A stretch of DNA of 32,000 nucleotides from positions 30,001 to 62,000 of the forward strand of contig JAUWGH010000009.1 in NCBI GenBank assembly GCA_030606485.1. The letters run 5' to 3'. Positions within the stretch are counted from its first letter, which is position 1. Each line of letters begins with the position of its first letter. Positions 4,702 to 28,488 of the stretch are shown here, one piece after another. This stretch comes from Promethearchaeota archaeon (GTDB lineage Archaea; Asgardarchaeota; Lokiarchaeia; Sigyniarchaeales; SOKP01). The notes beneath the pieces were generated by a model. The model was not told the DNA's origin, made no database searches, and saw nothing but the letters and a program-made list of their open reading frames with translations. The translations under genes were made by a program, and so were the position numbers.

Positions 4702-5154
4702 TTATTCTGGAGTAATTTCATCCAAATCTGATAAATCCAACCCAGAATCCATCTCAGAGGGCATCTCTGCTAAGAATTCATCTAGTAGTTCTTTTAGCTC
4801 TTCCCCACTACGTTTTAAAATTAGCCTAATTAGACCAAGATTTACTTCTGGATCCGATATTAAAGTTAGAACCCCACGCCCACAGGAGCTCGCAAATATT
4901 TTACCATTAGCGAATTCGGAAGTGACAATTTCTAAAAGCCCTAATTCAAGGTTCTTACCTTGTTCCTCAGAAGCACAAAATACTGCACTCGCAATAGCAC
5001 CGATACCGTCAACATCGGTGGGGAAATACGAGAATTTTGATACACTGGCGATTGTTAAGCCCGTTCTATCGACTAGAATAACTTTTTTAATTCCACTTTC
5101 AGATTTAATTATTTTACTAAGGATTTTATCAAAACTTTTTGTATCAAGAGAAAT
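4702..5154 (-). CDS. Roadblock/LC7 (MglB-like) protein with acidic C-terminal tail; not in the ORF track; probable ATT start
   Basis: Manual translation: (I)SLDTKSFDKILSKIIKSESGIKKVILVDRTGLTIASVSKFSYFPTDVDGIGAIASAVFCASEEQGKNLELGLLEIVTSEFANGKIFASSCGRGVLTLISDPEVNLGLIRLILKRSGEELKELLDEFLAEMPSEMDSGLDLSDLDEITPE*. There is an in-frame TGA upstream and no ATG/GTG/TTG at the N-terminus; GGAG lies at 5168-5165. Confidence 0.85.
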   Translation of the reverse strand: MSLDTKSFDKILSKIIKSESGIKKVILVDRTGLTIASVSKFSYFPTDVDGIGAIASAVFCASEEQGKNLELGLLEIVTSEFANGKIFASSCGRGVLTLISDPEVNLGLIRLILKRSGEELKELLDEFLAEMPSEMDSGLDLSDLDEITPE

Positions 5155-5438
5155 TTGAATACATCTCCGAGATTTATTTCATTAATTAAAACTTAAGGAA
5201 ATTTTCTTAATAATATAAAGGCAATTTATTATATAAAAATTTATTCTTATAAATGATTGAGATTTTCGCTATATTACTCCTTATAGTATAATTAGGGTTT
5301 GAAAAATATTATATTGTCTTATGAAATGTATTTATTTTTAAAAATTCATTAATTTTTTCTCAATTTGGTCCTTGAAAAATAAATATTCTAACTATTTACT
5401 ATAATGAAATTAATTGTATTGTATAAATGATATTAAAT

Positions 5439-6629
5439 CTATAGATAATCATTTTTGACACGCGTAAATATTGTGAGTATAATTATTGAGATTCCGATTA
5501 TTATAAAAAACGCGTAAATGTTCCACATTACTATAATTCCAATAAAAGGATAAATAATTGCTTGGATAAGACTTCCAAACATATTCACAGTGCTAAGAAT
5601 AGTTGCCCGATTTTCAGATTCAACTTGACTGTTAATTCCATTTACGTATAATAAGTATCTAGGATAACCAAATGCTACAATAATCAAAATAATTACAATG
5701 CCTAATAATACATTGGTGGTTAATCCTAAAAAGATATATGAGAAGCCAGTTATTAAATTAAACAAAATTAAAAGTCTGATTTTACTTTTAAACCATTTTC
5801 CAAACTTTGGTAATAAATTAATGAAAATTACATTAACAATATTCATCATAGAAGAAATAATACCAAAAAATAAAATATGAACATTAATTTCTTGTAGATA
5901 AGGCTGATAAGTCCAAAATAAGAGAAATATTAACACATTTATGAGTAATCTGTCAAAACATAGAATTCTTAATATTTTATTTTTTTTAAGTTCTTTAAAA
6001 CCATCCTTTATTATATTCAAATACCTTTCTGATTTGTATTCTTCTTTATAGATGGGTTCTTTGAATGTTAATGACGCAATAAACGCTCCCATATAAACAA
6101 ATGCTAAACACGTCATAGCAAATTGTAATGAAATAAATACTGCAATAATTGACCCAATTGGAGCAGAAAGGGTTAATGCAATCAAATTCATTGTTCGATT
6201 TCTTGCTAAAATTTTTGGTAATTTGTCTTCTTTTCCCAACTTTTTCAATGTATTATATAAAAAAGCTTCTTCAGTGCCTGACATTAATGCTAAACCAAGA
6301 CCCCAAAAAGTCTCTGCAAAAATAAATAATAGAAAATTTGGAATAATACTATATAGAATCGCTGCAAATGCTATGGAAAGTGCAGATAACGATAACGCAG
6401 GTTTTCTCCCAATGAAATCAGCAATGGCTCCTGATGGAATTTCAAGAAGAAAAATTACGAATGTAAAATAACTTTGCAATAACATTATCTCAAAAAATGT
6501 AAGTTGACCCCAATCAGTCATATATGGGATATATATGCCCCTAACTGTATGTATCCCTAAAATTAAATTGAATATATATGATTTACGTATATTTGCTTTA
6601 TATTTTTCATTATTTACTTCTAATTGCAT
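5439..6629 (-). CDS. MFS transporter
   Basis: About 12 hydrophobic segments; MFS motif A-like LLEIPSGAIADFIGRK; ESENRATILS. Confidence 0.9.
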   Translation of the reverse strand: MQLEVNNEKYKANIRKSYIFNLILGIHTVRGIYIPYMTDWGQLTFFEIMLLQSYFTFVIFLLEIPSGAIADFIGRKPALSLSALSIAFAAILYSIIPNFLLFIFAETFWGLGLALMSGTEEAFLYNTLKKLGKEDKLPKILARNRTMNLIALTLSAPIGSIIAVFISLQFAMTCLAFVYMGAFIASLTFKEPIYKEEYKSERYLNIIKDGFKELKKNKILRILCFDRLLINVLIFLLFWTYQPYLQEINVHILFFGIISSMMNIVNVIFINLLPKFGKWFKSKIRLLILFNLITGFSYIFLGLTTNVLLGIVIILIIVAFGYPRYLLYVNGINSQVESENRATILSTVNMFGSLIQAIIYPFIGIIVMWNIYAFFIIIGISIIILTIFTRVKNDYL

Positions 6630-6774
6630 TTTATTACCATTTAATCATACATAAAAATTAAATAAAATTTTTCATTTTTTTTTATAAGAAATAAACTTCT
6701 CGTAATTAAATTAATTATTTACGCTTTATTAGTTTTAATTAACATTCTTAAAATGAAATTAGTTGAAAACCTTT

Positions 6775-6975
6775 ATGAAAGATCAAAAAGAAAAATTAAA
6801 AAAGTATATACAATATTGGAACGACCATAATTCTTCACATTTGGAAAAATTAAATATTCGAATTGAAATGGCAATTGAATTGGGTTTGAATGAAGTGGCT
6901 GAAAAAATGAAAGAAGCGGTTGAATTTATGAATAAGGCTAATGAAATGCTATTAGAAGCGTTTAAAATGGTATAA
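6775..6975 (+). CDS. Small helical protein with a W-x-x-H-N-x-x-H motif (possible metal binding)
   Basis: ATG at 6775; YWNDHNSSHLEKL...MKEAVEFMNKANEML resembles, from memory, a small W-x-x-H-N-x-x-H helical family. Confidence 0.55.
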   Translation: MKDQKEKLKKYIQYWNDHNSSHLEKLNIRIEMAIELGLNEVAEKMKEAVEFMNKANEMLLEAFKMV

Positions 6976-7110
6976 TATTGTAAAAATATTTAGTATTAAT
7001 GTCTATAATATAAATGGTTTAAGATTCTTTAAGATAGAGATAAAATATTTATTAAGATTAAACAATTTATAATAATAGCATTGGAATAGGAAAATATTAT
7101 AAAAAAAGAT

Positions 7111-7207
7111 GCCTCAGTTGCTTAGCCGGTAGAGCGTTGCCTTGGTATCAAATCCGCAGGTTTAAACAGAAAGGCAAAGGTCGCGGGTCCGATTCCCGCC
7201 TGAGGCT
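7111..7207 (+). tRNA. trnT(GGU): tRNA-Thr(GGU) with a 24-nt intron at 37/38 (7148-7171)
   Basis: Acceptor GCCTCAG/CTGAGGC, D stem GCTT/GAGC, anticodon stem TTGCC/GGCAA with loop TT-GGT-A|A, T stem GCGGG/CCCGC, discriminator T. Confidence 0.93.
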
Positions 7208-7221
7208 CAATATTCGAGGAA

Positions 7222-7359
7222 GTCGGTGTGGCTAAGCTTGGTTAGTAAAGCGCTAAAAAGCGTTAGCGCCAACAAGCGCCAGACTCATAATCTCTTATAA
7301 AGAATTGGGTCAGAAAATAAGACATCTGGAGATCGCGGGCTCGAATCCCGCCACCGACA
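7222..7359 (+). tRNA. trnM(CAU): tRNA-Met(CAU), probably elongator, with two introns (7245-7273 at 21/22; 7290-7323 at 37/38)
   Basis: Acceptor GTCGGTG/CACCGAC; anticodon stem CCAGA/TCTGG with CT-CAT-AA after splicing; T stem GCGGG/CCCGC. G1-C72 argues against initiator; Ile2(CAU) is not fully excluded. Confidence 0.88.
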
Positions 7360-7360
7360 C

Positions 7361-7367
7361 TTTTTTT
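7361..7367 (+). terminator. Oligo-T tract, putative archaeal terminator of the tRNA pair
   Basis: T7 immediately after the tRNA-Met 3' end. Confidence 0.45.
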
Positions 7368-7428
7368 ATATTATTCTACATATCCTCAAACATTAACTTT
7401 TAATAATCGGTAATCAATATTTTTTGAT

Positions 7429-8991
7429 ATGGATAATCTAAATAAAATCTCCTTTTTGAATAAGATTTCCAGTTCCCAAATGGCTTCAGAGGATAATAAT
7501 TCTGAATGGTTAGGTATTCCCAAGAATTTATTAATGGAATGTGCAGGTTATTCATTCACTCAAAAGATTATTAAACATTATAATTTGAAGCCATATCAAC
7601 GAGTTGTTATATTTTCTGGCCTTGGTAATAATGGTGGTGATAGTTTTGTAATTGCTCGTCATTTATCGAGTATGAAAATATATGTCGATTTAATTTTAGT
7701 GGGATTACCTGAGAAAATAAGAACGGAGGAATCGCGATTAAATTGGAATATTATTCAAAATTTAAGTTTAACTATTCAAATTAGAATTATAAAAGATTCA
7801 TCTGAATTTAAAAAACTTCAAGTAGAATTAAATAAAATTAAAATTGACTTAATAATTGATGGACTGCTAGGAACTGGCATTAAAGGAAAGATACGAGAAC
7901 CAATATCTTCTGCTATTGATATAATTAATGATTTTCAACCTCAAGGAAAAAGAATAGCCTCTATTGACGTTCCCTCTGGAATGAATCCAGATACTGGAAA
8001 TATTTTAGATAAAGCAGTTAAAGCTGATTTTGTTGTGACCTTCCATAAATTAAAAAAAGGGCTGAATGAAAACACAGAATATGTAAAAAAAGTTGAAGTA
8101 AGTCCAATTGGAATACCGCTTGAGGCAAATCTTTTCGTTGGTAAGGGCGACTTGATACCAACAGTTAAAATTCACCCCGAATCTTCGCATAAAGGCGAAA
8201 ATGGAAAAGTATTAGTAATTGGAGGAAGTAAAGAATATTCTGGGGCACCCGCATTAGCATCTTTAGCAGCAATTAAAATGGGAGTTGATTTAGTAAGAAC
8301 TTTTGTACCAGGTTCAATTTCTGAAATTGTAAAAAAATATTCCCCTAATTTGATCGTAAATTACGGGAGTGGAGATTATATTTCTATTGAACATTTATCT
8401 TCTCTAAAAGAATTGATTGAATGGGCTGATGTAATTTTATTAGGACCAGGAATGGGAATTAATGGTATTACTCAAGAAGCGGTTTTAAAAATATTAACAT
8501 TTTTAGCCGATATAAATAAATCTTGTGTTATTGATGCAGATGCATTAAAATTAATTAAAAATAACCTTGAATTAATACAACATTCTAATATAATATTAAC
8601 ACCGCATGAAGGAGAATTAAAAATAATGACTGGAATATCTCTACCACCTATGAAAAATCTAATTGAAAGGTTAGAGAATGTCTCAAGAGTCGCAAAAAGA
8701 TATGGAGCGACATTTTTAGTTAAAGGGAAATATGATCTAATATCTAACGGTATTGAGAGAAAAATTAATCAAACAGGATGTTCCCAAATGACCGTAGGTG
8801 GAACTGGTGATGTCCTTGCAGGATTGTGTGCCGCATTTATGTCTGTAAATAATAGCGCTTTCAACTCAGCATGTTCAGCGGCTTTTTTAAATGGATTAGC
8901 TGGAGAATTGTGTTTAGAGGAAGTTGGAGATTTTTTCACATCCCTCGATATGATAAATAAGATTCCAGCAACTCTAAAAAAATTATTATAA
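7429..8991 (+). CDS. nnr: Bifunctional NAD(P)H-hydrate epimerase/dehydratase (YjeF_N + carbohydrate kinase-like)
   Basis: LLMECAG, GLGNNGGD, IIDGLLGTG, SIDVPSG, HKGENGKVLVIGGS, LLGPGMG, VIDADAL, LTPHEGE, TVGGTGDVLAG. Confidence 0.95.
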   Translation: MDNLNKISFLNKISSSQMASEDNNSEWLGIPKNLLMECAGYSFTQKIIKHYNLKPYQRVVIFSGLGNNGGDSFVIARHLSSMKIYVDLILVGLPEKIRTEESRLNWNIIQNLSLTIQIRIIKDSSEFKKLQVELNKIKIDLIIDGLLGTGIKGKIREPISSAIDIINDFQPQGKRIASIDVPSGMNPDTGNILDKAVKADFVVTFHKLKKGLNENTEYVKKVEVSPIGIPLEANLFVGKGDLIPTVKIHPESSHKGENGKVLVIGGSKEYSGAPALASLAAIKMGVDLVRTFVPGSISEIVKKYSPNLIVNYGSGDYISIEHLSSLKELIEWADVILLGPGMGINGITQEAVLKILTFLADINKSCVIDADALKLIKNNLELIQHSNIILTPHEGELKIMTGISLPPMKNLIERLENVSRVAKRYGATFLVKGKYDLISNGIERKINQTGCSQMTVGGTGDVLAGLCAAFMSVNNSAFNSACSAAFLNGLAGELCLEEVGDFFTSLDMINKIPATLKKLL

Positions 8992-9109
8992 GATTCATTA
9001 ATCTCCAATCTTTTTGGTACATAAAATTTTATATATTTTTAAATTATTATAATAAATAGTAAAGAATAAAAAAATAAACATTATAAGTATAATAAGGGAT
9101 GGGGTTAAA

Positions 9110-9931
9110 ATGGTACAAGTCTTTAAAATTTTAGATACTGGGGAAACTGAAGAAATTAAAGATACTGGGAGTCCAATTAAGGATATTCTAGACAGTTCTG
9201 AAGTATTTATTATAATCAGCGAACATCGTGATAAAACAATTTGGTTATGGAAAGGTGCAAAATCATCGGTCAGAAGAAAATTTATAGGAGCCCAGAAGTC
9301 GCAGGACATTCGAGGACAAGTTGGAATGCAATATTCAGTGTTTCCCGTAGACCAAGGCGAGGAAAAACCCGATATCATAAAAGCTATTGGCGGCAATCCT
9401 AGTGAAGGATTTGCGAGAGAAATTAAAGATGATAGTGATGGAATAGAGACTCATCCTTTAAGGCAAAAACAAATTTTTGAACCACCAAGACCAGCAGAAG
9501 GGATGAAAATCGGACCGTCACCTCAGGCTCAAGCTGGAATAGGACCTTTATATACTGGAGAGGAATCCATGTCTCGATATTTAGAACCAACTACTGTTGA
9601 TTTTAAATTTGTGATGCAAAAATTAGAAGAAATTGCTACTCCAGAAGGGTTCGAACGAGAATTGATAATTATTGGCTCCCAAACCTTTGCAGTTATCGAA
9701 AAAGTTCAAACATTTTTGGGCAGAAAACAAGTTGAGAAGGTTATAGAGCGTATTAGTTCAATCCCCGAAGGTGTTTTTTTTGCTGAAGGTTATACGCCTC
9801 GAATTTTATCAGAAAATGGAAAAGTATTGGCCATAGAATTTTTAAAAAAATCAAATAGTAATGAAAATAATAGTCCTAATAAAAAGAACATCTTGAAAAA
9901 TCAAATAAAGCAACAATTAGGTTCATCTTAA
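9110..9931 (+). CDS. Single gelsolin-homology domain protein with Pro-rich linker and a C-terminal domain of unknown function
   Basis: LDSSEVFIII...IWLWKGAKSSVRRKFIG...VDQGEE matches the gelsolin repeat pattern (L.S.D.FIL...I..W.G..SS....QG.E). Confidence 0.8.
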   Translation: MVQVFKILDTGETEEIKDTGSPIKDILDSSEVFIIISEHRDKTIWLWKGAKSSVRRKFIGAQKSQDIRGQVGMQYSVFPVDQGEEKPDIIKAIGGNPSEGFAREIKDDSDGIETHPLRQKQIFEPPRPAEGMKIGPSPQAQAGIGPLYTGEESMSRYLEPTTVDFKFVMQKLEEIATPEGFERELIIIGSQTFAVIEKVQTFLGRKQVEKVIERISSIPEGVFFAEGYTPRILSENGKVLAIEFLKKSNSNENNSPNKKNILKNQIKQQLGSS

Positions 9932-10028
9932 TAACAGGAATTAAAATAAAAGATATTTACAAAAAAATATTAAGTCATTTTAATTAATATTTCATAAAAT
10001 TAATTAAATTTCAAAATAAAATCTAATA

Positions 10029-10421
10029 ATGAGCGATTTAACACCACAAGAAGCTCAGAATTTATCCGAGTTCTTAGGAAATATCACCGAACATACTGAT
10101 TTAGAAGCATTGGCGTTAGTTACACGAGAAGGTTTAAGACTTGCTTTTTCATGCGTATCGGGATATAATATCAATCCGGATTTATTTTCGTCTATGAGCG
10201 CTGTAGTTATGAAAAGCGGGGAAGATGCTATTCAAGGACTTGAATATAATAATTTACTTGAAGTAATTCTTCGAGGCGATAACGCCTTTATAATTTTAAG
10301 CAACGCTGGACGATTTTTCCTAATGGGTGCAAGTAGAGAGATTAAAGATTTAGGAAAAATAGTTTCGGTTTTTAGATATTATGCTAAAGAAATCTCTAAA
10401 AGGTATCCAAAATTATCTTAA
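10029..10421 (+). CDS. Roadblock/LC7 (MglB-like) protein
   Basis: 130 aa; LEALALVTREGLRLA, DLFSSMSAVVMKSG, LLEVILRGDNAFIIL, LGKIVSVFRYYAKEI follow the roadblock fold pattern. Confidence 0.8.
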   Translation: MSDLTPQEAQNLSEFLGNITEHTDLEALALVTREGLRLAFSCVSGYNINPDLFSSMSAVVMKSGEDAIQGLEYNNLLEVILRGDNAFIILSNAGRFFLMGASREIKDLGKIVSVFRYYAKEISKRYPKLS

Positions 10422-10678
10422 AATTTCCTAATTCTTTAATTATTTAAGGAAAATAATGTTGTTGTAAATCGCGCTAATCTTGTTAATTTTATAACTTTTT
10501 TTAAAAGACACGAGACATATATTTCAAAATTTTATTAATAATGAGAAGAGGTCCGTTTAAAATTTTTTATTGATTAAAAATAAATTATAAATATAATAAT
10601 TCTAACATTTTATACTAATGAATATTTATTATGTTCTAAAAGGAATAAAATAATGAGTAATATTTTGAAGGGTTAATC

Positions 10679-12844
10679 ATGTCTAAAGAACCATTAATAT
10701 TATTTGTTGAGGTTTTTGATTCAGATTCTGAGAAAGTAATTACCTCTAATGAGAATCTTGAAAAATTGGGTGTTAAGACTGGAGATATAGTTGAAGTTAT
10801 AGATATGGATACAAATAAAACTATACCAGCATTTATTGAGGGCTCTCCGGATGTTTTAGAATTCGCCGGTAAATTTTCCAAAATAATAATAAACAATTTA
10901 AATTTTAAAGGAGTAGAATTAGGTATTCGAGTAAAAAGTGATATTAAAATCGTTCCTGAGCCCACTCCATCCAAAATAATTTCAGTCCCAGAAACCCCTT
11001 CCGCAGAAATAAAACCACCTAAAATTGAATTCGCAATAGGACAACCACAACCAACAACGCCTAAAATACCCACTTATGCACCTCCAAAACCAAAGGAACC
11101 AACTCCTGGAATTACTCCTCCACCCTCCCCACCTGGATTAACTCCAACCCCTCCACCGCCTTCACAACCATCACCAACATATGCACCTCCAAAACCACAA
11201 ATGCCAACACCTGGATTAACCCCCCCACCACAACCACCACAATTAGACCAATTAGGAATCCAACCAAATGGATTACCCAAAACTGAAATAACACCTACTT
11301 ACCCTAATCAAATTGATATATATGCTCTGCAGACTCAAAAAAGTGGAATAATTTTAACACCAAAAGTAGTCGATGATATTGAAGGAAGGGTTCAGTTAAG
11401 TGAAAATAATCTCAGAAAATTAGGATTAGGTGTAGGAATGTTAATTGCATGGGAAGATCCTTTGACACGATCTGTAGGTTCAGCGAGAATTTCTATGGGT
11501 CTTAATGTTACAGATAATCAAATCATAATGGATCAAAATACAAAGGAAGATACTAATATCCTCTCTGATCAAATTGTAGTTTATTCTACTGAACCACCCA
11601 TTCAGAAAATGGAGCAAATTTCCCTAGAAGTTAATTCAAAACCTGAACTTAATGGTTTTTGTCAAGTCAGCCCTAGGATAATGCATTCATTATCTGTGCA
11701 ACCTGGTGATATATTTGCTTTTGAAGACGAATTAACTGGCGCTATTGGAGCCGCAAAAGTTCAAATTAATGAAAGAATGCCTTCCAATCAAATTATTATT
11801 GATACTGAGATATTAGAAGCATCCGGAATCGGTAGTTATGAAGTTATTGTAAGGAAAAACCTAAGGCAAATTATAAATCTACAATCAATAAATTTAGGTA
11901 TAAGCCCAATTAAAGGAGAAAATATGTGGGAACTCGTAAGTACAATACGTAAAAGCGTTGATGCCTTAAAAAGTTGGCTTATGAATTATATAATATTTAA
12001 AGGAATTAAATTACGATGGAATGCAGCTAATATTGCATGTTCTGTCATTGATTGTATACCTGATTTGACAGGAGATATTTTTGCGCAAATAACTCCAGAT
12101 ACTACACTAAGCTTGAGTCCAACGGGGCTTATTCCGTTTAATGCAATATTAATTATTGACATTAGTAGGAGTATGATGGCGCGCGATGTAGAAATTAGAA
12201 ATATTGCTCCTGCAATCGAAGGAATTAAGGCAGCTATGTATTCCCCAGAAATTCAAGAATTTCTGAAGAAATTTAAGGAAGGTATATCAGTTCCACGTCG
12301 AATAGCAGCCGCTTTTGCAGCAGTTCTATTCTTAAGTGAGAAAGTTGGAAGAGGATTTGGAGAAAAAGTGAGTGTTATACGTTTTGCAGATGAATCTCAA
12401 GTATTACCCTTCCAAGGAGGGCTGTATATGGACTCTGCCAGCGGAGAAAAGGGAATTCTTGAAGATTGTGCTCGAATGATTGTTGATAGGATTGGAAACG
12501 CTTATGGTCAAGCAACAAATATGGGTGCCGCTATGCTTGCAGGAAGGGAAGTTCTCTACACATTTGAACAAATAAATCCTGATCAGCCAACTATGATAGT
12601 TATTTTGACTGATGGTGTTCCTACCGATGTAGATAATTTTCTTGAAGCTATTAAACAATTCAGTGAAAACCCAAATGTTGTAATATACATTGTAGGTCTA
12701 GGAAATCCTGATGATAAGTTAATGAATAGAGCTGCTAATTTATGCGGTGGAGAATACTTTAAACCTAATGATGCCGGGGAATTATTAATTTGGTATAGTA
12801 AACGCGCACGAGATTTAACAGTGAAACTTAAAGCTCATAAATAG
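10679..12844 (+). CDS. vWA-domain protein with three CDC48-N-like double-psi beta-barrel (DPBB) segments and a poly-Pro linker; no ATPase domain
   Basis: Complete MIDAS: IIDISRSM, ATNMG, ILTDG; also YIVGLG. DPBB-like segments: SNENLEKLGVKTGDIVEV, VQLSENNLRKLGLGVGMLI, CQVSPRIMHSLSVQPGDIFAF. No Walker A/B motif. Confidence 0.75.
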   Translation: MSKEPLILFVEVFDSDSEKVITSNENLEKLGVKTGDIVEVIDMDTNKTIPAFIEGSPDVLEFAGKFSKIIINNLNFKGVELGIRVKSDIKIVPEPTPSKIISVPETPSAEIKPPKIEFAIGQPQPTTPKIPTYAPPKPKEPTPGITPPPSPPGLTPTPPPPSQPSPTYAPPKPQMPTPGLTPPPQPPQLDQLGIQPNGLPKTEITPTYPNQIDIYALQTQKSGIILTPKVVDDIEGRVQLSENNLRKLGLGVGMLIAWEDPLTRSVGSARISMGLNVTDNQIIMDQNTKEDTNILSDQIVVYSTEPPIQKMEQISLEVNSKPELNGFCQVSPRIMHSLSVQPGDIFAFEDELTGAIGAAKVQINERMPSNQIIIDTEILEASGIGSYEVIVRKNLRQIINLQSINLGISPIKGENMWELVSTIRKSVDALKSWLMNYIIFKGIKLRWNAANIACSVIDCIPDLTGDIFAQITPDTTLSLSPTGLIPFNAILIIDISRSMMARDVEIRNIAPAIEGIKAAMYSPEIQEFLKKFKEGISVPRRIAAAFAAVLFLSEKVGRGFGEKVSVIRFADESQVLPFQGGLYMDSASGEKGILEDCARMIVDRIGNAYGQATNMGAAMLAGREVLYTFEQINPDQPTMIVILTDGVPTDVDNFLEAIKQFSENPNVVIYIVGLGNPDDKLMNRAANLCGGEYFKPNDAGELLIWYSKRARDLTVKLKAHK
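11075..11230 (+). repeat. Imperfect 105-bp (35 aa) duplication in the Pro-rich linker
   Basis: tatgcacctccaaaacca is identical at 11075 and 11180; PTYAPPKPKEPTPGITPPP vs PTYAPPKPQMPTPGLTPPP. Confidence 0.85.
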
Positions 12845-13048
12845 ATATAAATAAAATAACATTAATTAATCAAATTATAATTTTTCTCTTAAATTCTTAT
12901 AATTTTACTTATGTAAAGGCATTCTTCTACTCTACTTATTTTTAAAGGAATTTATTGAGAAAAAATTTTTTTATTTAAATGATTAAGTAATATTATTAAA
13001 CAAGTTTGAAGAATTTCTATTAATAAATAATATAAGATTTTATAAAAA

Positions 13049-13450
13049 ATGAAAGAAGCACGTATTCTTAATATTGATACGAGAGGAAGAATAGTAATCC
13101 CAAATATCTTCCGAAAATCGTTAGGGATCGAGGATGCAACCCAAATAATGATGATAGCAGATAGTGAGAAGAAAGAAATCCGAATCTATCCCGTAGGTTG
13201 GAGTGGAGAAAAAGATACCGTTAAATTTAAAATTTATATGAATGATGTTGCGGGTTCATTAGCACTAATTGCAAAAACCATAGGTGAATTAAAAATCTCT
13301 CTTATTTACGGTGAAGCAATCGTTATTGAGAAAGGAAAATTAGCGATATGGAACGTAATTGCACCTATTCCTGAAGGTTTAAATATTGAAAAAATAATTG
13401 AAACATTAATTCAAAGAGGAAAAGCTCAGAAAATTGAGATAATTGAATAA
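13049..13450 (+). CDS. AbrB/MazE/SpoVT-type DNA-binding domain fused to an ACT-like domain
   Basis: IDTRGRIVIPNIFRKSLGI (AbrB signature); KIYMNDVAGSLALIAKTIGELKISLIY (ACT D-x-x-G-x-L pattern). Confidence 0.75.
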   Translation: MKEARILNIDTRGRIVIPNIFRKSLGIEDATQIMMIADSEKKEIRIYPVGWSGEKDTVKFKIYMNDVAGSLALIAKTIGELKISLIYGEAIVIEKGKLAIWNVIAPIPEGLNIEKIIETLIQRGKAQKIEIIE

Positions 13451-13536
13451 TAAACAAGCGTTAAAATAAAAAATATAAAATATGATTATATCAATAGAAT
13501 ATTTTTTTTAAAGAATTATAAAAAATTAGAATTATT

Positions 13537-14229: not shown

Positions 14230-14347
14230 ATAGAGTATTGAATTCATTAAATAATATTTCTTAGTTCTCCTAGAAACCAAGAATTTCATAATTTTTGGGG
14301 GTGTTAATAACAAGGTTTTTTTAAGCATAAATTTCATATTAAATAAT

Positions 14348-15550
14348 ATGGAAAATGAGAAAGAAGAGTTTTTGCGTCCCCTAATCTTAGACATAGGTTC
14401 TGCTAATTTTCGGTTAGGTTTTGCGGGAGACGATCTTCCAGATATTATAGTTCCAAGTATATATGCGGATATAACAGATCCAATATATAAATCAGATAAT
14501 ATTTCTGGATTAAAGGATATATTTGTTTCTAAGAATACAGAAAAACATCTATATGGAATGGAGGCGTTAAAATATAAGGATATTTTGAATAATCATCAAT
14601 TTGTAATAGAAAAAAATTATAATGTCTTGAAAAAATTCTTTTTATATTATTATCATCAATTGGAAATAGAACAGAACTATTTTTTTCAACAGCCATTAAT
14701 TATTTTATTTCCTTTTACCAGCTCAGAAAATGATAAAAAAAAATTGCAACAGATATTTTTAGATGAATTAAATTTTCCAAAAATTAATTTTATTAGTTTT
14801 TCTGATTGTATTTTATCTGCTTTAGGTAAAAATACAGGGGTTGTTATCAATATAGGGGAACAAAATTCATTTGTATCAACATATTTACATGGATATAGTA
14901 ATTTCTCAGCCCGTGAATTTTTTCCAATTGCAGGAAAGGATCTTACAGAATATTTAATGGATTTAATATTATTCAATAAAAAATACAAAATAAATTATAT
15001 AGATCAATGGATTGCACGAGAAATAAAAAATAAATCTTCAATATGTGTTTTTAATCCTAAAGAAACAAAAAAAAAAATTAAAGAAGGATTAAGTTCTTTT
15101 GACCAAGAAATTCAATTACCTGATGGATATATTTTTACGATTAACTTCGAAAGAATAATGATTTCTGAACCTTTATTTAATCCAAATGTGATTCATTTAG
15201 ACACAGTTGAATTACCAAAATTGGTTGCAGAACTTGTAAAAACATGGAATAGGAATGATTGGCTGGAATTACTTCAAAATATTGTTCTTTGTGGGGGGAC
15301 TAGTCTAATTAAAGATCTTGGTAAAAGATTAAAATTGGAAATCGGAAAGTTTTTTTCCAAAAAAATAAAAGATGAGATAAAAGTTATTACACCAACAGGC
15401 AGAGAAAATATGGGATGGATTGGTGCTTCCATTTTATATTCACGTGGATTATTTTCGAAAGGATGGATTGAAAATCCGAATAATCAAAATGAAATTAAAA
15501 ATGATGAAGTTTTATCCCAGCCCCCTTCTAACGCAGTAGATGAGGATTAA
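14348..15550 (+). CDS. Divergent actin-related protein (actin/ARP family)
   Basis: LILDIGSANFRLGFAGDDLPDIIVPS; LPDGYIFTINFERIMISEPLFNP; NIVLCGGTSLIKDLGKRLKLEI; IKVITPTGRENMGWIGASIL. All align with actin hallmark segments. Confidence 0.92.
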   Translation: MENEKEEFLRPLILDIGSANFRLGFAGDDLPDIIVPSIYADITDPIYKSDNISGLKDIFVSKNTEKHLYGMEALKYKDILNNHQFVIEKNYNVLKKFFLYYYHQLEIEQNYFFQQPLIILFPFTSSENDKKKLQQIFLDELNFPKINFISFSDCILSALGKNTGVVINIGEQNSFVSTYLHGYSNFSAREFFPIAGKDLTEYLMDLILFNKKYKINYIDQWIAREIKNKSSICVFNPKETKKKIKEGLSSFDQEIQLPDGYIFTINFERIMISEPLFNPNVIHLDTVELPKLVAELVKTWNRNDWLELLQNIVLCGGTSLIKDLGKRLKLEIGKFFSKKIKDEIKVITPTGRENMGWIGASILYSRGLFSKGWIENPNNQNEIKNDEVLSQPPSNAVDED

Positions 15551-18174: not shown

Positions 18175-18258
18175 ATTGTTAGCCAGAGAAACAAAAATAA
18201 TTTAAATATTCAAAATTAATAAAACATAATAAATAAAATAAAAAACAATGAAATTCGT

Positions 18259-18789: not shown

Positions 18790-18888
18790 TGCCCATAAAA
18801 AAAAATTTTTAAAATACATCATTTAATTCCTAAATTTAAATCAGTAATTTTATTTTACAATTGGAATATTTAAATGAACGCCCTTTTT

Positions 18889-21800: not shown

Positions 21801-21894
21801 CAAATAAACTTTCAAACCAGTGTTCTATAGTATGCTCATTTAAGGCTCTTCTTAAAGGACTGATATCAAAATCTTTATCATAACTTGAAATCAT
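18889..21894 (-). CDS. Type IIG restriction-modification enzyme (PD-(D/E)XK nuclease + N6-adenine MTase + TRD in one chain)
   Basis: RPDSLIGDIIIDFK; GEYYTPEKLA; VLDSSCGSGTFL; GFDINPIA; IITNPPW; C-terminal TRD-like region (YYLCGMLN-type segment HYLCGMLN). Confidence 0.85.
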   Translation of the reverse strand: MISSYDKDFDISPLRRALNEHTIEHWFESLFDKFELNYQEQQKLLSGRPDSLIGDIIIDFKYKISKKELENWIGSKGKQYIEEYRKLNASFPSLLIVISDEFIWYYDEHLVLHQQQELNKKSIRSLIQCLLEPRVLNAEQFAILFGVNSPLYILYLARLENHFDEHKGQNTVCFQQWKNNFRMAYHDEKIGKELFLRHSYLSTLIKLILYKEFIKPDEYSRDYFMDLENYFETIGISLFHYDFFRWVINVSGVCDELFDKLKLMKFEATDIFRTIYQEMIIAGVRHQLGEYYTPEKLAKRMVEKSYTLGDAVLDSSCGSGTFLIELLKKIDSLFELEEGAKPTKKWFESVNKIYGFDINPIAILTSKANLILYFKSRRKWIEEISINVYLCNSIDPIEFSKQSDILLGNYYNFCINTIDDKKELKIPEEALSLKSIGIFRKLVKLIYNVWEEFENFEDTWDAAIEFLNNKDELSFFNSKIGSTNTLIKEVLFNFFNQLYDLKQLDKDHIWLYILNNLVGIRMLLLKEKMDLIITNPPWLTYKDANSDLKRNLKLISKQYNILPGSENITNIEEAVIFLYKIPSLYLKKEGSSKIAFVMPRSLIVSSQNEFARRFDNFYEIEFFIFNDLVFNIDCCCFFAKFNESKKDDITTVFQKYPCHCNYLDSESMRLIEQYYLEPWAYSQKERGKKYSVKKLIKPKEKDKLLPIYTSYYHPKFVQGADLIPKSLLYCHIIKLIQNGNIAIIEPWISPQAKGFWKKAHYQRERVEITNIFEATLSRKLYPFYCGTYSIFLPLDKEYQYNFENLGPFSRKHWKLISKIYEQQTKKDLFKIGINFRNKLCSPHTANNLPKVKKNQKGKYKVIFPNAKNLVASVIYDPDGRKFIDSTCYYYSTENENEAHYLCGMLNIPDLFESVKIIRDTRHHHKRPLYFNIPRFNKIKSHLEIAKLSKESSKIIENYISKNQKIKLDNIFMLIEGKLEIIREIGLGILNSREGESILKEF

Positions 21895-22155
21895 TAATTT
21901 TTATCCATGTTTATTATTTGTAAGATTGGTTTATAATAATATTAAAATTCATAACAAAATTGTCAATAACTAGTAGAAGAAATCATAAAATACATGGATA
22001 TTACATAAATTGTCAAAAAAAGAGATATTTGTATTATTAATTAAATCAAAAAAGCGACACAAATTAAAATATACTAAGAAAATATTTGTTTTTTAACAAT
22101 TTATTATTTCTTTTCTCTCTATTTATTTAAATCTTTCATCTTATAATTTTATTTC

Positions 22156-22557
22156 ATGTTAAATAAATTAGATCAAGAATATACGGAATTAATATTAGAT
22201 GATCTTAATGAACAAACATTAAATGAAAATTTAGAATCATTTCTTCTTGAAAATATTAAATACCTCTTAATAAGAGAGAATTTTATTTCAAGTAAAAATC
22301 ACTTCAAATTTTTAATAGTCAATGGCTCAGTAATTCCTGATTTTAAAAATGGTTTTTATGAAGGAAAATTTTTAATACAACAACTTAATACATCAAGATC
22401 TATAGCGTATGGTGATTTTTCAACAACTATAAAATTATTAGATAATGAAACCGTTGAGATTCTTGATATGATTGTTGGGCTATATCCAAAAGATTTTTAT
22501 TATGGTATAAACCATCTTTCTAAAATTAACTTTCATATTCTATTTCAGAATTGGTAA
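22156..22557 (+). CDS. Hypothetical protein
   Basis: 133 aa ORF in an AT-rich context; no recognised motif. Confidence 0.5.
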   Translation: MLNKLDQEYTELILDDLNEQTLNENLESFLLENIKYLLIRENFISSKNHFKFLIVNGSVIPDFKNGFYEGKFLIQQLNTSRSIAYGDFSTTIKLLDNETVEILDMIVGLYPKDFYYGINHLSKINFHILFQNW

Positions 22558-22692
22558 GACATATGTTATTTTAATTAACTTTTATTAAAGTTAATGTTCT
22601 AACGATAAAAATAAAAATTAATATTGTTTTAAAAGAATTTAATAAAATTGTTCAAAAAATAATCTAACTAATTTAAATAGAAAATTGAAAGA

Positions 22693-23313
22693 CTAGGCAG
22701 TTTCTTGCTCGGGCATTTCACCCTGAAGCTTCTTATAATGATTTAATACCCCTTGACGTGCAGCATAAACAAATCCCCGCTTCACATTAACTCCAGTAAT
22801 AGCTATCGTCTCATAGATTAGCGTTTGATTTAACTTTGCTTTATCAAGAACCTCACGAATTTTATTTATCTCTACAATATCTTCTAAATCCCGTTTATTT
22901 GCACAAACAACAAGTGGAACTTCCGCTGGGTCTGAAAAACTTTTAGAAATTAATCTATCTCCATAAAATTGTAATAATTCTTTTAAACTCCATATATTTT
23001 CTTCCCACTGGTCGATTAAACTGTCCCAAAAGAAGAGGATACAATCAGTTCCTTTGAGGACCGTTCGTCTCTGGAATTTGTGGCGTCTCTGGCCGGCGAC
23101 GGTATAAACTTGAAACACCACATTGCTTACTCGGGCTACTACTCTATCAAAGAACAATGTACGACCAGTTGGATCAGCTATCTGCTGCATATCACCTGAA
23201 GCAAGTCCCTCTTTCTTGTATACCCATTCTAAGGCAGTTGTTTTTCCTCCTAAAGATGGACCCCAGAATACAACTTTGAAAACCAGTGTTCCATCCCCGC
23301 GACGACTTGGAAT
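22693..23313 (-). CDS. Small GTPase, MglA-like/Ras superfamily; start lies upstream of the ORF-track call (probable ATT at 23313)
   Basis: G1 GPSLGGKTT (upstream of ATG 23190), G2 RTLFFD, G3 YTVAGQ, G4 ANKRD, G5 ETIA. In-frame TGA at 23343-23341; SD AGGAGAGG at 23328-23321. Confidence 0.9.
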   Translation of the reverse strand: MPSRRGDGTLVFKVVFWGPSLGGKTTALEWVYKKEGLASGDMQQIADPTGRTLFFDRVVARVSNVVFQVYTVAGQRRHKFQRRTVLKGTDCILFFWDSLIDQWEENIWSLKELLQFYGDRLISKSFSDPAEVPLVVCANKRDLEDIVEINKIREVLDKAKLNQTLIYETIAITGVNVKRGFVYAARQGVLNHYKKLQGEMPEQETA

Positions 23314-23391
23314 ATTTAATCCTCTCCTATTAAAAATTTTTCATTTATTAATTTTGATAAAGAAAATTGTTATAAAATTTATAATAATTCT

Positions 23392-23538
23392 CTTAAATTA
23401 ATGTTATCTAAATTATATTAATTTAATATTGTTTAAAGTATTTAAATAATATCTACTAATAAGATATCTCAAAATTTGAGTCTGAAGGTTAGGTATCTTC
23501 TCATGATTGATGATAGCAAAGATGAAATCTTTAATTTG
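23392..23538 (+). repeat. Left copy of a ~145 bp imperfect direct repeat (copy of the phosphoesterase upstream region and 5' end)
   Basis: tttaaagtatttaaataatatctactaataagatatctcaaaatttgagtctgaaggttaggtatcttctcatgattgatgatagcaaagatgaaa aligns with the 28495-28643 region. Confidence 0.85.
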
Positions 23539-23541
23539 TGA
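23503..23541 (+). pseudogene. Truncated copy of the phosphoesterase N-terminus (MIDDSKDEIFNL*)
   Basis: First 8 codons match MIDDSKDE at 28610, then a frameshift and stop. Confidence 0.75.
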
Positions 23542-24146
23542 TTCTTCAGTTAATTCACCATACTTCTGCGTACTAATAACAAATAGATCTTAATAGTTGT
23601 ATTTCGGCAACGTTAGCTAATCGAGTGGTCTCTCTTCATCAATAAAAAAATATTCAAGGTGTCCATCGATAATAATTTATTTAATCATATTTAATGAACT
23701 GTTAAGAAACCTCTCAAATTTTTTATTGAAGATATCCGAGTGTGTTATACCTCCGTTCGAAAATTTCTGAGTCACAATCACTGTTTGTATTGTAAGTATA
23801 ATATTCACGGTTATTATAGAAATAAAAAGCACTCGAACCTAATTTATAGTCAAGATTTAAGTTATCAAAATCTATCCCAGTCATTGCATTGGCAACTAAA
23901 GTATTCGTATCTAGATTTATACTTAAAATATATGATAATGCACCCTAATATTTTATAATGGAGTTGCAATTAATGAATTAACGTTTTATACTACATCTTG
24001 TTGGTGAGTGATAAAAATTTTAAGAATAAAGATAACTTGTATTTAATAAACAAAAAAAGAAATCTTTATATGTTCAGACAAGAAAAATTAAATGAAATAA
24101 AATAAATTTAAATAAATTAAATTAAAAAAAAAAAAAATGAAATAAA

Positions 24147-24932
24147 ATGAGGAAAGGAATTACAGCAATAGTAATAATAGTTTGTATAGTAGCAGGGTTC
24201 GCTGCTGGATGGCTTTTTTCCGCATTTCTCCCGGGGCTAACACAAGTATCGCTAGTTGATCAGATTAAGGCGCGAGGTTATATCATTGTTGGAACTAGTT
24301 CTGATTGGCCACCCTTCGAGGTATTCAACACGACTACGCAAGAGTTGGAAGGCTTTGACATCGACATATCAGAATTGGTTGCAGCAGAACTCGGTGTTAC
24401 TGTTCAATGGAGCGACATGGACTTTGACTCACTGATAGGTGCTTGTACTGGAGGCACAATCGATATGGTTGCGGCTGCAATAATGGTCACACCAGAACGT
24501 GCAGAAGTTCTCGCGCATTCCGTGCCCTACATTCGTGTAAACGAATTAATCATCGTTAGAGGTGATTCAATCCTTACGATTACTAAATTAGAGGATTTAG
24601 CAGCTCTTCCGGCCAAATCAGTCGGCTGCCAATCGGGTACTACACAAGAGGACGAATTGATAGACGCTGGTGTAGATTATGCGTCATATGTTAGTGCTCT
24701 TTTGATGCTCGCCGACCTAGACGCTGGCGGTATCGATGTAGCATTCATAGACGAGCCAGTCTTAGGTCAGTATATGGCATACGGCTTCAAGTCCATTTTT
24801 AGCGTACCAGCTGAACCTACAGCGTTATGGTGTAAATGGGAAGAACCGGAATTAATGGCGGCGATCAATAAAGCCCTCCTTGAAGCCTATAAAGACGGGA
24901 CGATAGATGCTCTTATCGCAAAGTGGTTTTAG
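24147..24932 (+). CDS. Polar amino-acid ABC transporter substrate-binding protein (family 3) with N-terminal membrane anchor
   Basis: IVGTSSDWPPFE, GFDIDI, DFDSLI, VGCQSGTTQ, LIAKWF. Confidence 0.92.
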   Translation: MRKGITAIVIIVCIVAGFAAGWLFSAFLPGLTQVSLVDQIKARGYIIVGTSSDWPPFEVFNTTTQELEGFDIDISELVAAELGVTVQWSDMDFDSLIGACTGGTIDMVAAAIMVTPERAEVLAHSVPYIRVNELIIVRGDSILTITKLEDLAALPAKSVGCQSGTTQEDELIDAGVDYASYVSALLMLADLDAGGIDVAFIDEPVLGQYMAYGFKSIFSVPAEPTALWCKWEEPELMAAINKALLEAYKDGTIDALIAKWF

Positions 24933-24938
24933 GGGTGA

Positions 24939-25628
24939 TTGATGGTGGAGACGCCAGATCTCCCTTCTATTTTTTTTTATATTCTCGTGAATGGATTACC
25001 CTTAACCTTACTACTCACTGCCCTAGGTCTTTTGGGGGGCTTTTTCCTGGGTTTATCGCTGGCAATCATGCGCGTTTATGGAGGTAAAGACCTTGATTTG
25101 GTATCGAGCGGCTACGGGAAGGTATTGCGTGGCATCCCACTTTTGGTTTTGATCTACATCTTCGTCTTTGGAATACCTGGTATATTTTGGTTTATAGACC
25201 CACTTATGAGACCGCTTTTCGGCGTAATTTTGGCGCTTGCTCTTCGCAGTGGGGCTTACCAATCTCAGCTTTTTCGCGGGGCTATTTTATCCGTGGACCC
25301 GGGGCAGATGATGGCTGCTCGTGCGATGGGGATGAGCCAGTTCCAAGCTTTCCGACACATTGTGTTGCCCCAAGCCCTACGGCTGGCAATACCTAGCTGG
25401 TCTAACGAGTATGCGGTGGTCATCAAGGATTCGTCCTACGCCTACGCGGTTGGAATTATTGAGATGCTAAAGGTGGCATTTCGTGTATCTGCTAATTACC
25501 CACTGCTCTGGGCTCCAACGATGGGTGTTGTTGCGATTCTATACTTTATCTTTACTTATCCTATAACAAGGATATTTGGCGAACGACAAACCAAGAAACT
25601 TAAGAAGTTGGGAATGGGAGGTGGTTAG
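24939..25628 (+). CDS. Polar amino-acid ABC transporter permease (HisM/GlnP family)
   Basis: [49 protein letters not shown]. Confidence 0.92.
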
Positions 25629-25630
25629 AT

Positions 25631-26422
25631 ATCGTTAAATCTGTGCTACGTATAGTTGATGGTTGGAAGTCATATGGGGATTTACAGGTCCTTAAGGGAG
25701 TCTCATTCGAGGTGGGGGAGCAAGAGGTCAAGGTCATCTTTGGACCAAGTGGCTCTGGCAAGAGCACATTGCTTCGTTGCATCAACATGCTGGACCCACT
25801 AGACAAGGGTGAAGTACATCTCCGTGAACAGAATCTTATGGCACCTGGAATCAATCTTAATGCGATACGGGCGAGAATCGGCATGGTATTCCAACATTTT
25901 AATCTGTTCGCCCACCTTAAAGCGATAGATAATGTCAGTATCGGTCTTCGTCAGGTCAAAAAGCTACCAAAGGAGGAGGCTCGCGCAAAGGCATTGGAGA
26001 TGTTAAATCGTGTCAAGATGGCGGAGTGGGTTGATCACTATCCTGCACAACTATCCGGTGGCCAACAACAACGTGTGGGCATTGCACGTGCTTTGTCCAT
26101 GGAACCCGATGTAATTTTGTTTGACGAGCCTACATCTGCCTTGGATCCTGAACTGATAGGCGAAGTGCTTCAAGTGATGTTAGACATCGCTAAATCGGGT
26201 ACTACAATGATAGTCGTCACCCACGAAATGGGATTTGCTAGAGCCGTAGCATCAGAAATGCTCTTCCTCGATAATGGAGTCATTGTAGAACGGGGAACCC
26301 CCCAGCACTTCTTCGTCTCGCCCAAATCCGAGCGGGTAAAACAGTTTCTCAAACAGCTTGATATTTTATACGGAAGCCATAAAGAACTTCTGAAGCGGTC
26401 AAACGAGGAGGAAAGCAAGTAA
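25631..26422 (+). CDS. Polar amino-acid ABC transporter ATP-binding protein (GlnQ family); start ATC 25631 or GTG 25643
   Basis: [54 protein letters not shown]. Confidence 0.95.
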
Positions 26423-27198
26423 TGTTTCAAGTACTCCCTCAACCGATAGAGGATATTCTCCGTGTACTGGAGTACTGGGATCATATCCTCGCAGGGTTCC
26501 TAACTACGATGGAATTGTATGGAGGGGCGATTGTGATGGGCTTTTTCCTTGGTCTTCTGCTCGCTCTTCTCCGCCAGTATGGGGGGTTTATTATTTCACG
26601 GATTGCTACCGGGTACATTGAATTTATACGTGGTACACCCTTACTCGCGCAGTTGTTCTTCATTTACTTTCTCCCCTACAGCATGAATGCTATTTTAGAG
26701 GCACAAGGTCTTTTCCCCATACCTATTGGGAAGTGGAGTTTCCAAACCGACATTATAATCCTCGACCGGATTATCACTTACACAATCTTTGATCACCGAA
26801 TGCTTGTCGGTCTCCTCACGTTAGCTCTTAATAGTGCAGCCTATCAGGCTGAATACATCCGTGGAGCCATTAAATCTGTTGGGACCGGTCAATTATTAGC
26901 TGCCCAATCGCTGGGTATGTCTCGTCTGGCCAGTATTCGTCATGTCGTGTTACCACAGGCTCTGCGTCGTGTTATTCCTGCGTGGTCCAACGAAGCTGCT
27001 TATCTTCCGAAGTACACCGTTGTTGTATTTTTCATTGGAGTGGTGGACCTCTTTGGCAAGGCGCATTTTATCGTTGCAAATATTTTTCGCACACTCACCA
27101 CATATTGCATAATCGCTCTCATTTTTCTAGCTCTGATCACAATTATCTCCAAGGTACTAGACTTTGTCCACAAACGGACAAGTATTCCAGGTTTGTAG
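26422..27198 (+). CDS. Polar amino-acid ABC transporter permease (second)
   Basis: IRGTPLLAQL, SAAYQAEYIRGAIKSV..GQ..AA.SLGMS, LPQALRR; start overlaps the upstream stop (TAATG). Confidence 0.92.
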   Translation: MFQVLPQPIEDILRVLEYWDHILAGFLTTMELYGGAIVMGFFLGLLLALLRQYGGFIISRIATGYIEFIRGTPLLAQLFFIYFLPYSMNAILEAQGLFPIPIGKWSFQTDIIILDRIITYTIFDHRMLVGLLTLALNSAAYQAEYIRGAIKSVGTGQLLAAQSLGMSRLASIRHVVLPQALRRVIPAWSNEAAYLPKYTVVVFFIGVVDLFGKAHFIVANIFRTLTTYCIIALIFLALITIISKVLDFVHKRTSIPGL

Positions 27199-27507
27199 TT
27201 TGTCCAAGAATCTATTTACTATTAAACAGAATGAGCATACGCAGTTTATAGTTATCGATGTAATCTTAAAGATATTTCTAAATTTCAATATTTTAATTTT
27301 GAACCTTAAGATAAAATAAATAGCGATATGTTTGAAGATATGTTCTACCCAAATTTTATTATAAAATTAAAACCTGTAGTAAAGGGATTAATTTACAAAT
27401 ACCTTAACTTTCGATGATTTGTATTTGGAAAAAAATTTATAAGAAGTGAAATTGTTAGAGTTAATAATTAAGAAATAACTAAATCCATAATCAGATGGTG
27501 GTTTTAC

Positions 27508-28488
27508 ATATCTGAAATAATTACTCTCAAAAAAATCGAGGATGCACAAAAGAGAATCAGTGATTTTATCAAGAGAACACCTCTTATCTATTCGGAGTTT
27601 ATTAGTGAGCTATGTAATGGCACAGTCTATCTTAAGTTGGAGAACCAACAACTCACCAACGCTTTCAAGATACGAGGAGCATTTAACCTAATGATGCAAT
27701 TAAGTACAGAAGAGAGGTCTCGTGGTGTTGTTACCGCTTCATCAGGGAATCATGCATTGGCAGTAGCCTTAGCTGCAAAACATTTAGGCATCTTTGCCAT
27801 AATTGTAGTTCCGACGAATGTATCAAAAGCCAAGCTAAACAAGATGAAGGAGTATGATATCAAAGTTATTCAAGAAGGAGACTTCGAAGAGATCTATACA
27901 AAAGCAAGAGAGATATCTACCAGCGAGGGTCTAACCTACATCAGTTCGTACAATGATCTAGAGGTTATAGCAGGTCAAGGAACAATAGGTCTTGAAATCT
28001 ATGAAGAGATTGGACGGGTAGATTCAATCATTGTTCCTGTTGGTGGAGGAAGCTTGATTTCTGGTATTGCCATTGCAGTAAAATCTTTTAATCCTAATAC
28101 CAGGATAATAGGGGTTCAGACAGGGGGAGCTTCCACAATGTATGAGTCTTGGAAAGCTAGAAGAGTGGTAAGCGTCGAAGAGTATCATACATTAGCGGAA
28201 GGTCTATTGGGTGGTCTTGATCCCGAAGCTATCACCCTAGAATTGATACAAAAATATGTAGATGAGTTAGTCTTAGTAAAAGAGAGAAGTATTGAAGAAG
28301 CAATCCGCCTTTTATGGAAGAAAGAGGGGCAGATCGTTGAAGGAGCAGGAGCAACGACCATTGCCCATATTCTAGAAGAAAAACGAAAATTCGTAAAAAA
28401 GAAGGTGGTAGCCGTAGTGAGTGGGGGAAACATCGAAGACTCCTTATTTCAAGAGATTTTAAGTACAGAACAGACTAGTAAAGATTGA
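27508..28488 (+). CDS. PLP-dependent threonine/serine dehydratase (IlvA/TdcB/serine racemase family), no ACT domain; start upstream of the ORF track (probable ATA 27508)
   Basis: ITLKKIEDAQKRISDFIKRTPL...VYLKLENQQLTNAFKIRGA, TASSGNHA, AGQGTIGLEI, PVGGGSLISG, VVSGGNI. In-frame TAA at 27469-27471. Confidence 0.9.
   Translation: MSEIITLKKIEDAQKRISDFIKRTPLIYSEFISELCNGTVYLKLENQQLTNAFKIRGAFNLMMQLSTEERSRGVVTASSGNHALAVALAAKHLGIFAIIVVPTNVSKAKLNKMKEYDIKVIQEGDFEEIYTKAREISTSEGLTYISSYNDLEVIAGQGTIGLEIYEEIGRVDSIIVPVGGGSLISGIAIAVKSFNPNTRIIGVQTGGASTMYESWKARRVVSVEEYHTLAEGLLGGLDPEAITLELIQKYVDELVLVKERSIEEAIRLLWKKEGQIVEGAGATTIAHILEEKRKFVKKKVVAVVSGGNIEDSLFQEILSTEQTSKD

Follow-up and report, generated by a model that had tools for sequence, protein, structure and literature searches.

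Near-cognate start codons in bacteria are known from genes such as infC and pcnB of Escherichia coli, and NCBI translation table 11 counts ATT, ATC and ATA among the starts; E. coli itself has a handful of near-cognate-start genes. Mitochondria, for example those of vertebrates, use AUA and AUU as starts, and AUA serves there also as an internal Met codon that is read by a modified tRNA-Met. In eukaryotes, near-cognate initiation occurs in the framework of scanning and Kozak context, favours CUG, GUG and ACG and is policed by eIF1 and eIF5 (see also PMC6412873). For archaea, a 2020 review of initiation gives AUG, GUG and UUG as the start codons and describes Shine-Dalgarno (SD) sequences as not prevalent in a cultured Lokiarchaeon (PMC7531240), while ribosome profiling in Haloferax found about 30% near-cognate codons among the putative alternative start sites, which were set aside (PMC7261190). 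In the literature that we searched, the only archaeal ATT start was a remark on AtubA, for which such a start was proposed in a metagenome-assembled genome (MAG) of the Kariarchaeaceae, Lokiarchaeia (PMC13394414). Here, we analyse a 32,000 nucleotide (nt) stretch of a Lokiarchaeia genome (Promethearchaeota archaeon, contig C7:30001-62000, i.e., JAUWGH010000009.1), which we call the window and to which all coordinates refer unless a contig is given, and four of its genes that appear to start at ATT, ATA or ATC (collectively ATH): a roadblock gene, a small GTPase, a pyridoxal phosphate (PLP)-dependent dehydratase and the ATPase of an ATP-binding cassette (ABC) transporter. As judged from sequence comparison, these four codons are very probably true near-cognate starts that are decoded as Met, and they would represent a trait of the lineage that is not confined to the four genes.

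The source genome (G000) is a MAG of 3.75 Mb in 13 contigs with a G+C content of 29%. The 3′ end of its 16S rRNA reads GGATCACCTCCT, and we express SD distances as aligned spacing, i.e., the distance to the start codon from the position pairing just after the GGTG of AGGAGGTGATC. For the canonical starts (ATG, GTG, TTG) of G000 the SD spacing peaks at 5–10 nt with a maximum at 7–8, and all four ATH codons possess an SD at an aligned spacing of exactly 7, which is within this optimum. The original prediction of four ATH starts behind well-spaced SDs was reproduced in its coordinates and distances, and the in-frame stops that it had placed shortly upstream of the first three were found 8, 9 and 12 codons away (roadblock, GTPase and dehydratase, respectively). 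It had also proposed that conserved N-terminal sequence precedes the first canonical start, and this sequence turned out to comprise the P-loop of the GTPase, part of the PALP domain of the dehydratase and nearly all of the roadblock protein. Conserved coding sequence upstream of the canonical starts, an SD at canonical spacing and the alignment of homologue starts with the ATH codon, all expected for SD-dependent near-cognate starts, were thus found together.

The Roadblock/LC7 gene starting at ATT 5154 (4702–5154, minus strand) encodes a protein of 150 amino acids (aa) that was assigned by Pfam and orthologue alignment, with Robl_LC7 (PF03259) matched at E = 1.7e-9 over profile positions 7–90 of 91. 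Its SD, GGAG at 5165–5168, was identified as a sequence match to the 16S rRNA end, and the open reading frame (ORF; 4702–5178, minus strand) is preceded by a TGA stop at 5181–5179, whereas the first in-frame ATG, GTG or TTG is not reached before codon 138 of 158. Among the orthologues, eight distinct contexts of the family f1 have ATT directly before the conserved S-(L/I)-D-T-K-S-F-D and one has ATA, with a TGA 1–2 codons upstream of the near-cognate codon in G005 and G008, and every one of these ATT or ATA orthologues has an SD at an aligned spacing of 6–7. Three other f1 genera have TTG or ATG at the aligned position, and the other families have ATG. The retention of ATT over at least seven f1 genera may leave room for selection on the roadblock gene, whereas the start codon of the GTPase varies freely.

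This second gene, starting at ATT 23313, encodes an Arf/Ras-like small GTPase of 206 aa (22693–23313, minus strand; Pfam Arf/Ras and orthologue alignment), and its SD, GGAGAGG at 23321–23327, was found by sequence match with its first G 14 nt upstream of the start. The ORF (22693–23340, minus strand) follows a TGA at 23343–23341, and the P-loop precedes the first ATG at 23190. Orthologues were searched for in 30 relatives that span 4 families of the order. In front of the conserved P-S-R-R-G-D, four assemblies of the genus and G006 have ATT, which in G006 directly follows a TAG stop. At this codon, G030 has ATA and G012 has CTG, each with a stop one codon ahead of it (TGA in G030), while GTG and TTG occur in one genome each and ATG in the remaining relatives. 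Among named MAGs, it is ATT in JAHLWH01, JAHLWE01, JAHQWG01 and JAWOFX01, and ATA in CAZGJX01, again with a stop one codon upstream. Metagenomic relatives of more than 90% identity are 206 aa long, equal to the length predicted from ATT 23313, and have an ATG at the aligned codon, where the SD is absent. One NCBI call gives a protein of 214 aa from the farther-upstream ATT 23337. In addition, the orthologues of genus g2 (G005 and G017) carry frame-breaking insertions of about 27–32 nt in the 5′ part of the gene. One insertion separates the P-loop from the conserved N-terminal strand and the other interrupts the P-loop itself; they may represent small introns, insertions of another kind or faults in the assembly.

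The PLP-dependent (threonine/serine) dehydratase starting at ATA 27508 (27508–28488, plus strand; 326 aa), assigned by Pfam PALP and its relatives, is preceded by the SD GGTGG (27497–27501; sequence match) 11 nt upstream of the ATA, and its ORF (27472–28488, plus strand) is closed upstream by a TAA at 27469–27471. PALP (PF00291) is matched in full length (E = 1.1e-82, profile positions 1–295 of 295) beginning with ORF residue 29, and the first canonical start is TTG 27637, codon 56 of the ORF. The lysine motif spans ORF residues 57–70, with the PLP lysine at codon 66. True orthologues of this gene exist within the genus only; the ATA is kept in G001, and an ATG lies within one codon of it in G002. 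Public records begin at ATG 27691 or 27694 (Met 74 or 75), downstream of the lysine motif, and one 265-aa member of the 90%-identity cluster carries the name TdcB (MBA7654648.1). We also considered an error in the TTTT homopolymer upstream of ATA 27508, which was ruled out by the different sequence of equal length in G001.

The fourth gene, starting at ATC 25631, encodes the ATPase of a polar amino acid ABC transporter (25631–26422, plus strand; 263 aa, homologue alignment). Its SD, GGAGGTGG (25617–25624; sequence match), lies inside the end of the upstream permease gene, 14 nt upstream of the ATC, at an aligned spacing of 7 to ATC 25631 and of 19 to GTG 25643. The N-terminal extension is small in this case, as the GTG is located only four codons downstream. 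However, most Asgard homologues (77–89% identity) are 263 aa long, equal to the length predicted from the ATC, and their Met aligns with ATC 25631; GTG 25643 was dropped as a start candidate, since the aligned homologues show an internal conserved Val there. Within the genus, the start codon is ATC in G001 and ATA in G002. The gene belongs to a four-gene polar amino acid ABC operon (window positions 24141–27198) consisting of SBP_bac_3, two BPD_transp_1 permeases and the ATPase, with a G+C content of 0.41–0.48 compared with 0.29 for the genome. Close homologues of this operon (E ≤ 1e-70; 31 relatives) were found only in G000–G002, plus a more distant one in G023 (52% identity), yet MAGs labelled as Thor-, Hod-, Heimdall- and Hermodarchaeota contain proteins with 77–89% identity; this patchy distribution suggests that the operon was moved among Asgard lineages by transfer.

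We extended the analysis to the whole of G000 with a set of 3,834 stop-to-stop ORFs that were 100 codons or longer and showed coding-type codon usage. In these ORFs, in-frame codons that precede the first canonical start by 5 codons or more were scored for an SD of at least 4 nt at aligned spacing 7. Such an SD was found for 29 of 2492 ATT (1.2%), 26 of 1861 ATA (1.4%) and 4 of 610 ATC codons (0.7%), compared with 4/2248 for AAT (0.2%), 3/2104 for TTA (0.1%), 5/2711 for TTT (0.2%), 13/2854 for AAA (0.5%) and 102/31955 for all codons except ATT, ATA, ATC and CTG (0.3%). ATT and ATA together (55/4353) are thus four to five times commoner at this spacing than the other codons (102/31955; Fisher p = 5e-14), and the excess persists against matched AT-rich control codons (30/10962; p = 4e-12). 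It amounts to about 41 genes, a conservative count that sets a floor of 1.1% of genes, in comparison with 116 canonical first starts that have an SD at spacing 7. For the GGTG motif at a gap of 7, 13 ATT and 17 ATA codons compare with 27 canonical starts, whereas at a gap of 8 there are 44 canonical starts and no ATT/ATA excess. Most of the genome-wide hits are located 0–9 codons past the upstream stop, and 16 of the 30 GGTG-type hits read GGTGA-N6-ATW, where the in-frame stop is provided by the TGA within the SD; this geometry is the same for control codons and is therefore not the source of the enrichment. Two other approaches were less useful. Raw triplet counts after GGTGA, AGGTG or GGAGG anywhere in the genome were drowned by coding-frame periodicity, so that even ATG was without a peak and pattern counts alone are therefore unusable on other genomes, and a test over a broad window of 5–10 nt gave an enrichment of just 2–3-fold, because the codon after each true start enters the control set, leaving the spacing-resolved test as the cleaner one.

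Among the individual hits are further genes in which family motifs lie ahead of any canonical start. ATA is the candidate start of a short-chain dehydrogenase/reductase (SDR; C7:82929; glycine-rich dinucleotide-binding motif), ATT that of a second GTPase (C5:211225; P-loop) and of a PfkB-type kinase (C1), and CTG that of a MinD-like ATPase (C5, minus strand). The scan and the orthologue alignments, in which Met or another start codon aligns at each of the four ATH codons, hence gave the outcome that the original prediction had anticipated. Its statement that the lineage uses AUH starts routinely holds insofar as the SD-led ATT/ATA excess is genome-wide, but the affected share is at least about 1% of genes and not a majority.

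The dependence on the SD was also seen within the GTPase and roadblock orthologue sets, in which an SD at aligned spacing 6–8 precedes all 16 near-cognate starts, whereas only 13 of the 23 ATG starts have one within 5–10. Most ATG-started genes of the window lack any SD match, and genome-wide about 15% of the first canonical starts show an SD of at least 4 nt at spacing 5–10. For the most part, initiation in G000 probably proceeds without an SD or on leaderless transcripts, in contrast to the near-cognate starts seen, every one of which is SD-led. Elsewhere in the window, the gene at 14255–15550 (plus strand) contains, seven codons ahead of ATG 14348, an ATA at 14327 with a 4-nt SD at aligned spacing 9, which could be a fifth near-cognate start but is ambiguous.

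Signals of the same kind were detected in two closed Asgard genomes. In G026, which represents another family of the order, 7 of 732 ATT and ATA codons compared with 14 of 6175 others in the 1.2 Mb analysed (p = 0.0045). In G031, a 1.4-Mb genome of another Asgard family of which 0.8 Mb were used, ATA was enriched at spacing 7 (9/341 versus 36/5792, p = 7e-4) and also at spacing 5 (12/341), while ATT was not enriched. Both signals are weaker than that in G000 but significant. The trait would belong to the Promethearchaeia/Lokiarchaeia and is probably wider in the Asgard archaea. Furthermore, the gene of the initiation factor aIF1 (SUI1) itself shows apparent near-cognate starts in five genomes of other Asgard families (G032, G037, G043, G047 and G057), either ATA behind AGGAGG-N9 or CTG behind AGGTG-N7, both of which correspond to aligned spacing 7, whereas the aIF1 of many other Asgard genomes starts with ATG. 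The aIF1 of G000 (C6:14364-14765) was not counted as AUU/AUA-started; it is ambiguous, with a GTG four codons upstream of the ATA and no good SD.

In view of a possible relaxed start selection, the original prediction had suggested inspecting the initiator tRNA for substitutions. Aragorn predicted 15 tRNAs in G000 without and 38 with intron search, among them a single CAT tRNA (C6:44349-44448, minus strand) whose initiator features are A1:U72 and an anticodon stem with three G-C pairs. A 21-nt intron follows closely on the 3′ side of its anticodon. We looked for signs of altered decoding in this gene and saw none; the initiator tRNA gene of G000 looks canonical. Many tRNA genes of this genome probably contain unusual introns, because just 38 tRNAs were detected even with intron search. 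A tRNA-Sec (TCA) was also predicted.

Among the alternatives, the one that survives best takes AUH initiation as real but as a gene-specific means of down-regulation, as in bacterial infC, rather than as a lineage-wide property of the machinery. We consider it unlikely, although it deserves attention, because both the roadblock ATT kept over at least seven f1 genera and the canonical initiator tRNA gene would agree with it, and weak starts would be appropriate for regulators of low abundance, for example a GTPase and its roadblock-type partner. The affected genes are, however, unrelated in function (a transporter ATPase and a dehydratase here, an SDR and a kinase elsewhere), about 40 or more of them are involved, and within orthologue sets the start codon drifts among ATG, GTG, TTG, CTG, ATT and ATA, which speaks for tolerance and not for a conserved switch. 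Because of these unrelated functions and this free drift, we would favour general tolerance over gene-by-gene tuning.

That the genes start instead at the first downstream ATG, GTG or TTG, as they are called publicly, with the upstream frame untranslated, appears very improbable. Public collections indeed hold a GTPase of 165 aa, an exact match to the product from ATG 23190, and a dehydratase of 264/265 aa, and GTG 25643 yields a plausible N-terminus for the ABC ATPase. But this GTPase is without its P-loop, the roadblock protein would be reduced to 20 residues, the called dehydratase begins past the PLP lysine motif and even a start at TTG 27637 would cost 27 residues of the PALP domain, while the supposedly untranslated part shows protein-level conservation between genera, and the homologues have an internal Val at the position of GTG 25643. 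The public GTPase and dehydratase entries thus match the truncation that the original prediction had expected of annotations.

Hardly any weight falls on assembly or read errors that conceal a true ATG, or on decaying pseudogenes. Single-base errors do occur, and the genome is a MAG in 13 contigs, but ATT or ATA is repeated in separate assemblies (G001–G003, JAHLWH01, JAHLWE01, JAHQWG01) and in other genera, the ORFs are intact with a protein identity of 80–100%, and the excess is spread over the genome and restricted to a single SD spacing. Equally remote is a start at the out-of-frame ATGs by the SDs (5164, minus strand, and 27495, plus strand) followed by a programmed +1 frameshift. Both ATGs are one base off the gene frame, and G001 retains ATG 27495. 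However, they touch or overlap the SD and so have none of their own, run into a stop after 6 codons and have no counterpart in the GTPase and the ABC ATPase; the roadblock ATG is missing from G004 and other genera that keep the ATT, and no slippery run is common to G001 (TTTCAT) and G000 (TTTTAC).

If the ATH codons are ordinary SD-led starts, the following mode of action can be proposed. The 16S rRNA 3′ end would pair with an SD located exactly 7 nt (aligned) upstream, and this duplex would fix AUU, AUA or AUC in the P site of the small ribosomal subunit, where the initiator Met-tRNA with its CAU anticodon would read the codon with a third-position mismatch, such that the proteins would start with Met. 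The efficiency of initiation at ATH would likely be below that at AUG, and strict spacing may offset the weak codon-anticodon pairing. The fixing of the codon in the P site by the SD duplex could be the reason why the SD dependence is complete and why the spacing is so narrow.

Several points weigh against SD-led ATH starts as a trait of the lineage. The N-termini at the four ATH codons are predictions from sequence, and the view that the rate is higher than in other archaea draws on the literature statement of AUG, GUG and UUG use (PMC7531240). The ATT/ATA excess occurs only at aligned spacing 7, while canonical starts are spread over 5–10; this restriction fits a stricter geometry for weak codons but is without an independent explanation. 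Moreover, the compared relatives are kin and not independent samples, which means that the p value for the contrast in SD use between near-cognate and ATG starts in the two orthologue sets (p = 0.002) makes the evidence look stronger than it is. Finally, the 0.4 Mb of the genome G065 yielded 0 of 159, an underpowered sample. In a separate observation on this genome (C1:1-400000), ATT codons upstream of the first canonical start had 11 SD-like matches at spacing 14 and almost none elsewhere, which looks like a repeated sequence rather than start sites.

A broader proposal, on which our judgement is evenly balanced, is that in Lokiarchaeia and probably other Asgard archaea an SD at exactly 7 nt licenses AUU, AUA, AUC and CUG as ordinary starts in one to several per cent of genes, including those for eukaryotic-signature proteins (small GTPases, roadblock proteins, tubulin) and, in some lineages, aIF1, with a stringency below that of other archaea and possibly with a feedback loop through aIF1. 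This is directly testable in cultured Lokiarchaeia, because the closed same-order genome G026 gives the same signal. Asgard archaea are studied mostly via their predicted proteins. If a few per cent of genes did start at ATH codons, gene finders restricted to ATG, GTG and TTG would truncate or miss genes, and structural and evolutionary work on eukaryotic-signature proteins would inherit wrong N-termini. There is also a bearing on the evolution of start-codon fidelity in the lineage closest to eukaryotes.

This arrangement resembles the bacterial AUU, AUA and AUC starts, which are likewise SD-led at a normal distance, have a third-position mismatch to CAU and are missed by standard gene finders. 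Unlike in E. coli, at least about 40 genes (1% or more) are involved in one genome, and the host is an archaeon with eukaryote-type aIF1, aIF1A and aIF2. The four genes also differ from infC in that they encode a roadblock protein, a GTPase, a PALP enzyme and an ABC ATPase and no initiation factors, and the autoregulatory logic of infC is therefore inapplicable to them. Mitochondria use the same codons as starts, but ATA and ATT are abundant internal Ile codons here, in agreement with the standard code. With eukaryotic near-cognate initiation, the Asgard cases share the homologous aIF1/eIF1, which is thought to check the pairing, and the use of near-cognate codons at a measurable rate, but initiation here is determined by an SD placed at a fixed distance, with a preference for AUA and AUU and then for AUC and CUG. 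AtubA comes from an organism of the same class, and its start was proposed by the same reasoning, with a truncated N-terminal beta-strand, an upstream ATT and a plausibly spaced ribosome-binding site, although it was a single-gene remark in a Methods section that termed such starts 'rare', without genome-wide or comparative analysis (PMC13394414). Near-cognate initiation as such is already known, and what the comparison of these genomes would add is SD-led near-cognate initiation at an unusual frequency in an archaeal lineage.

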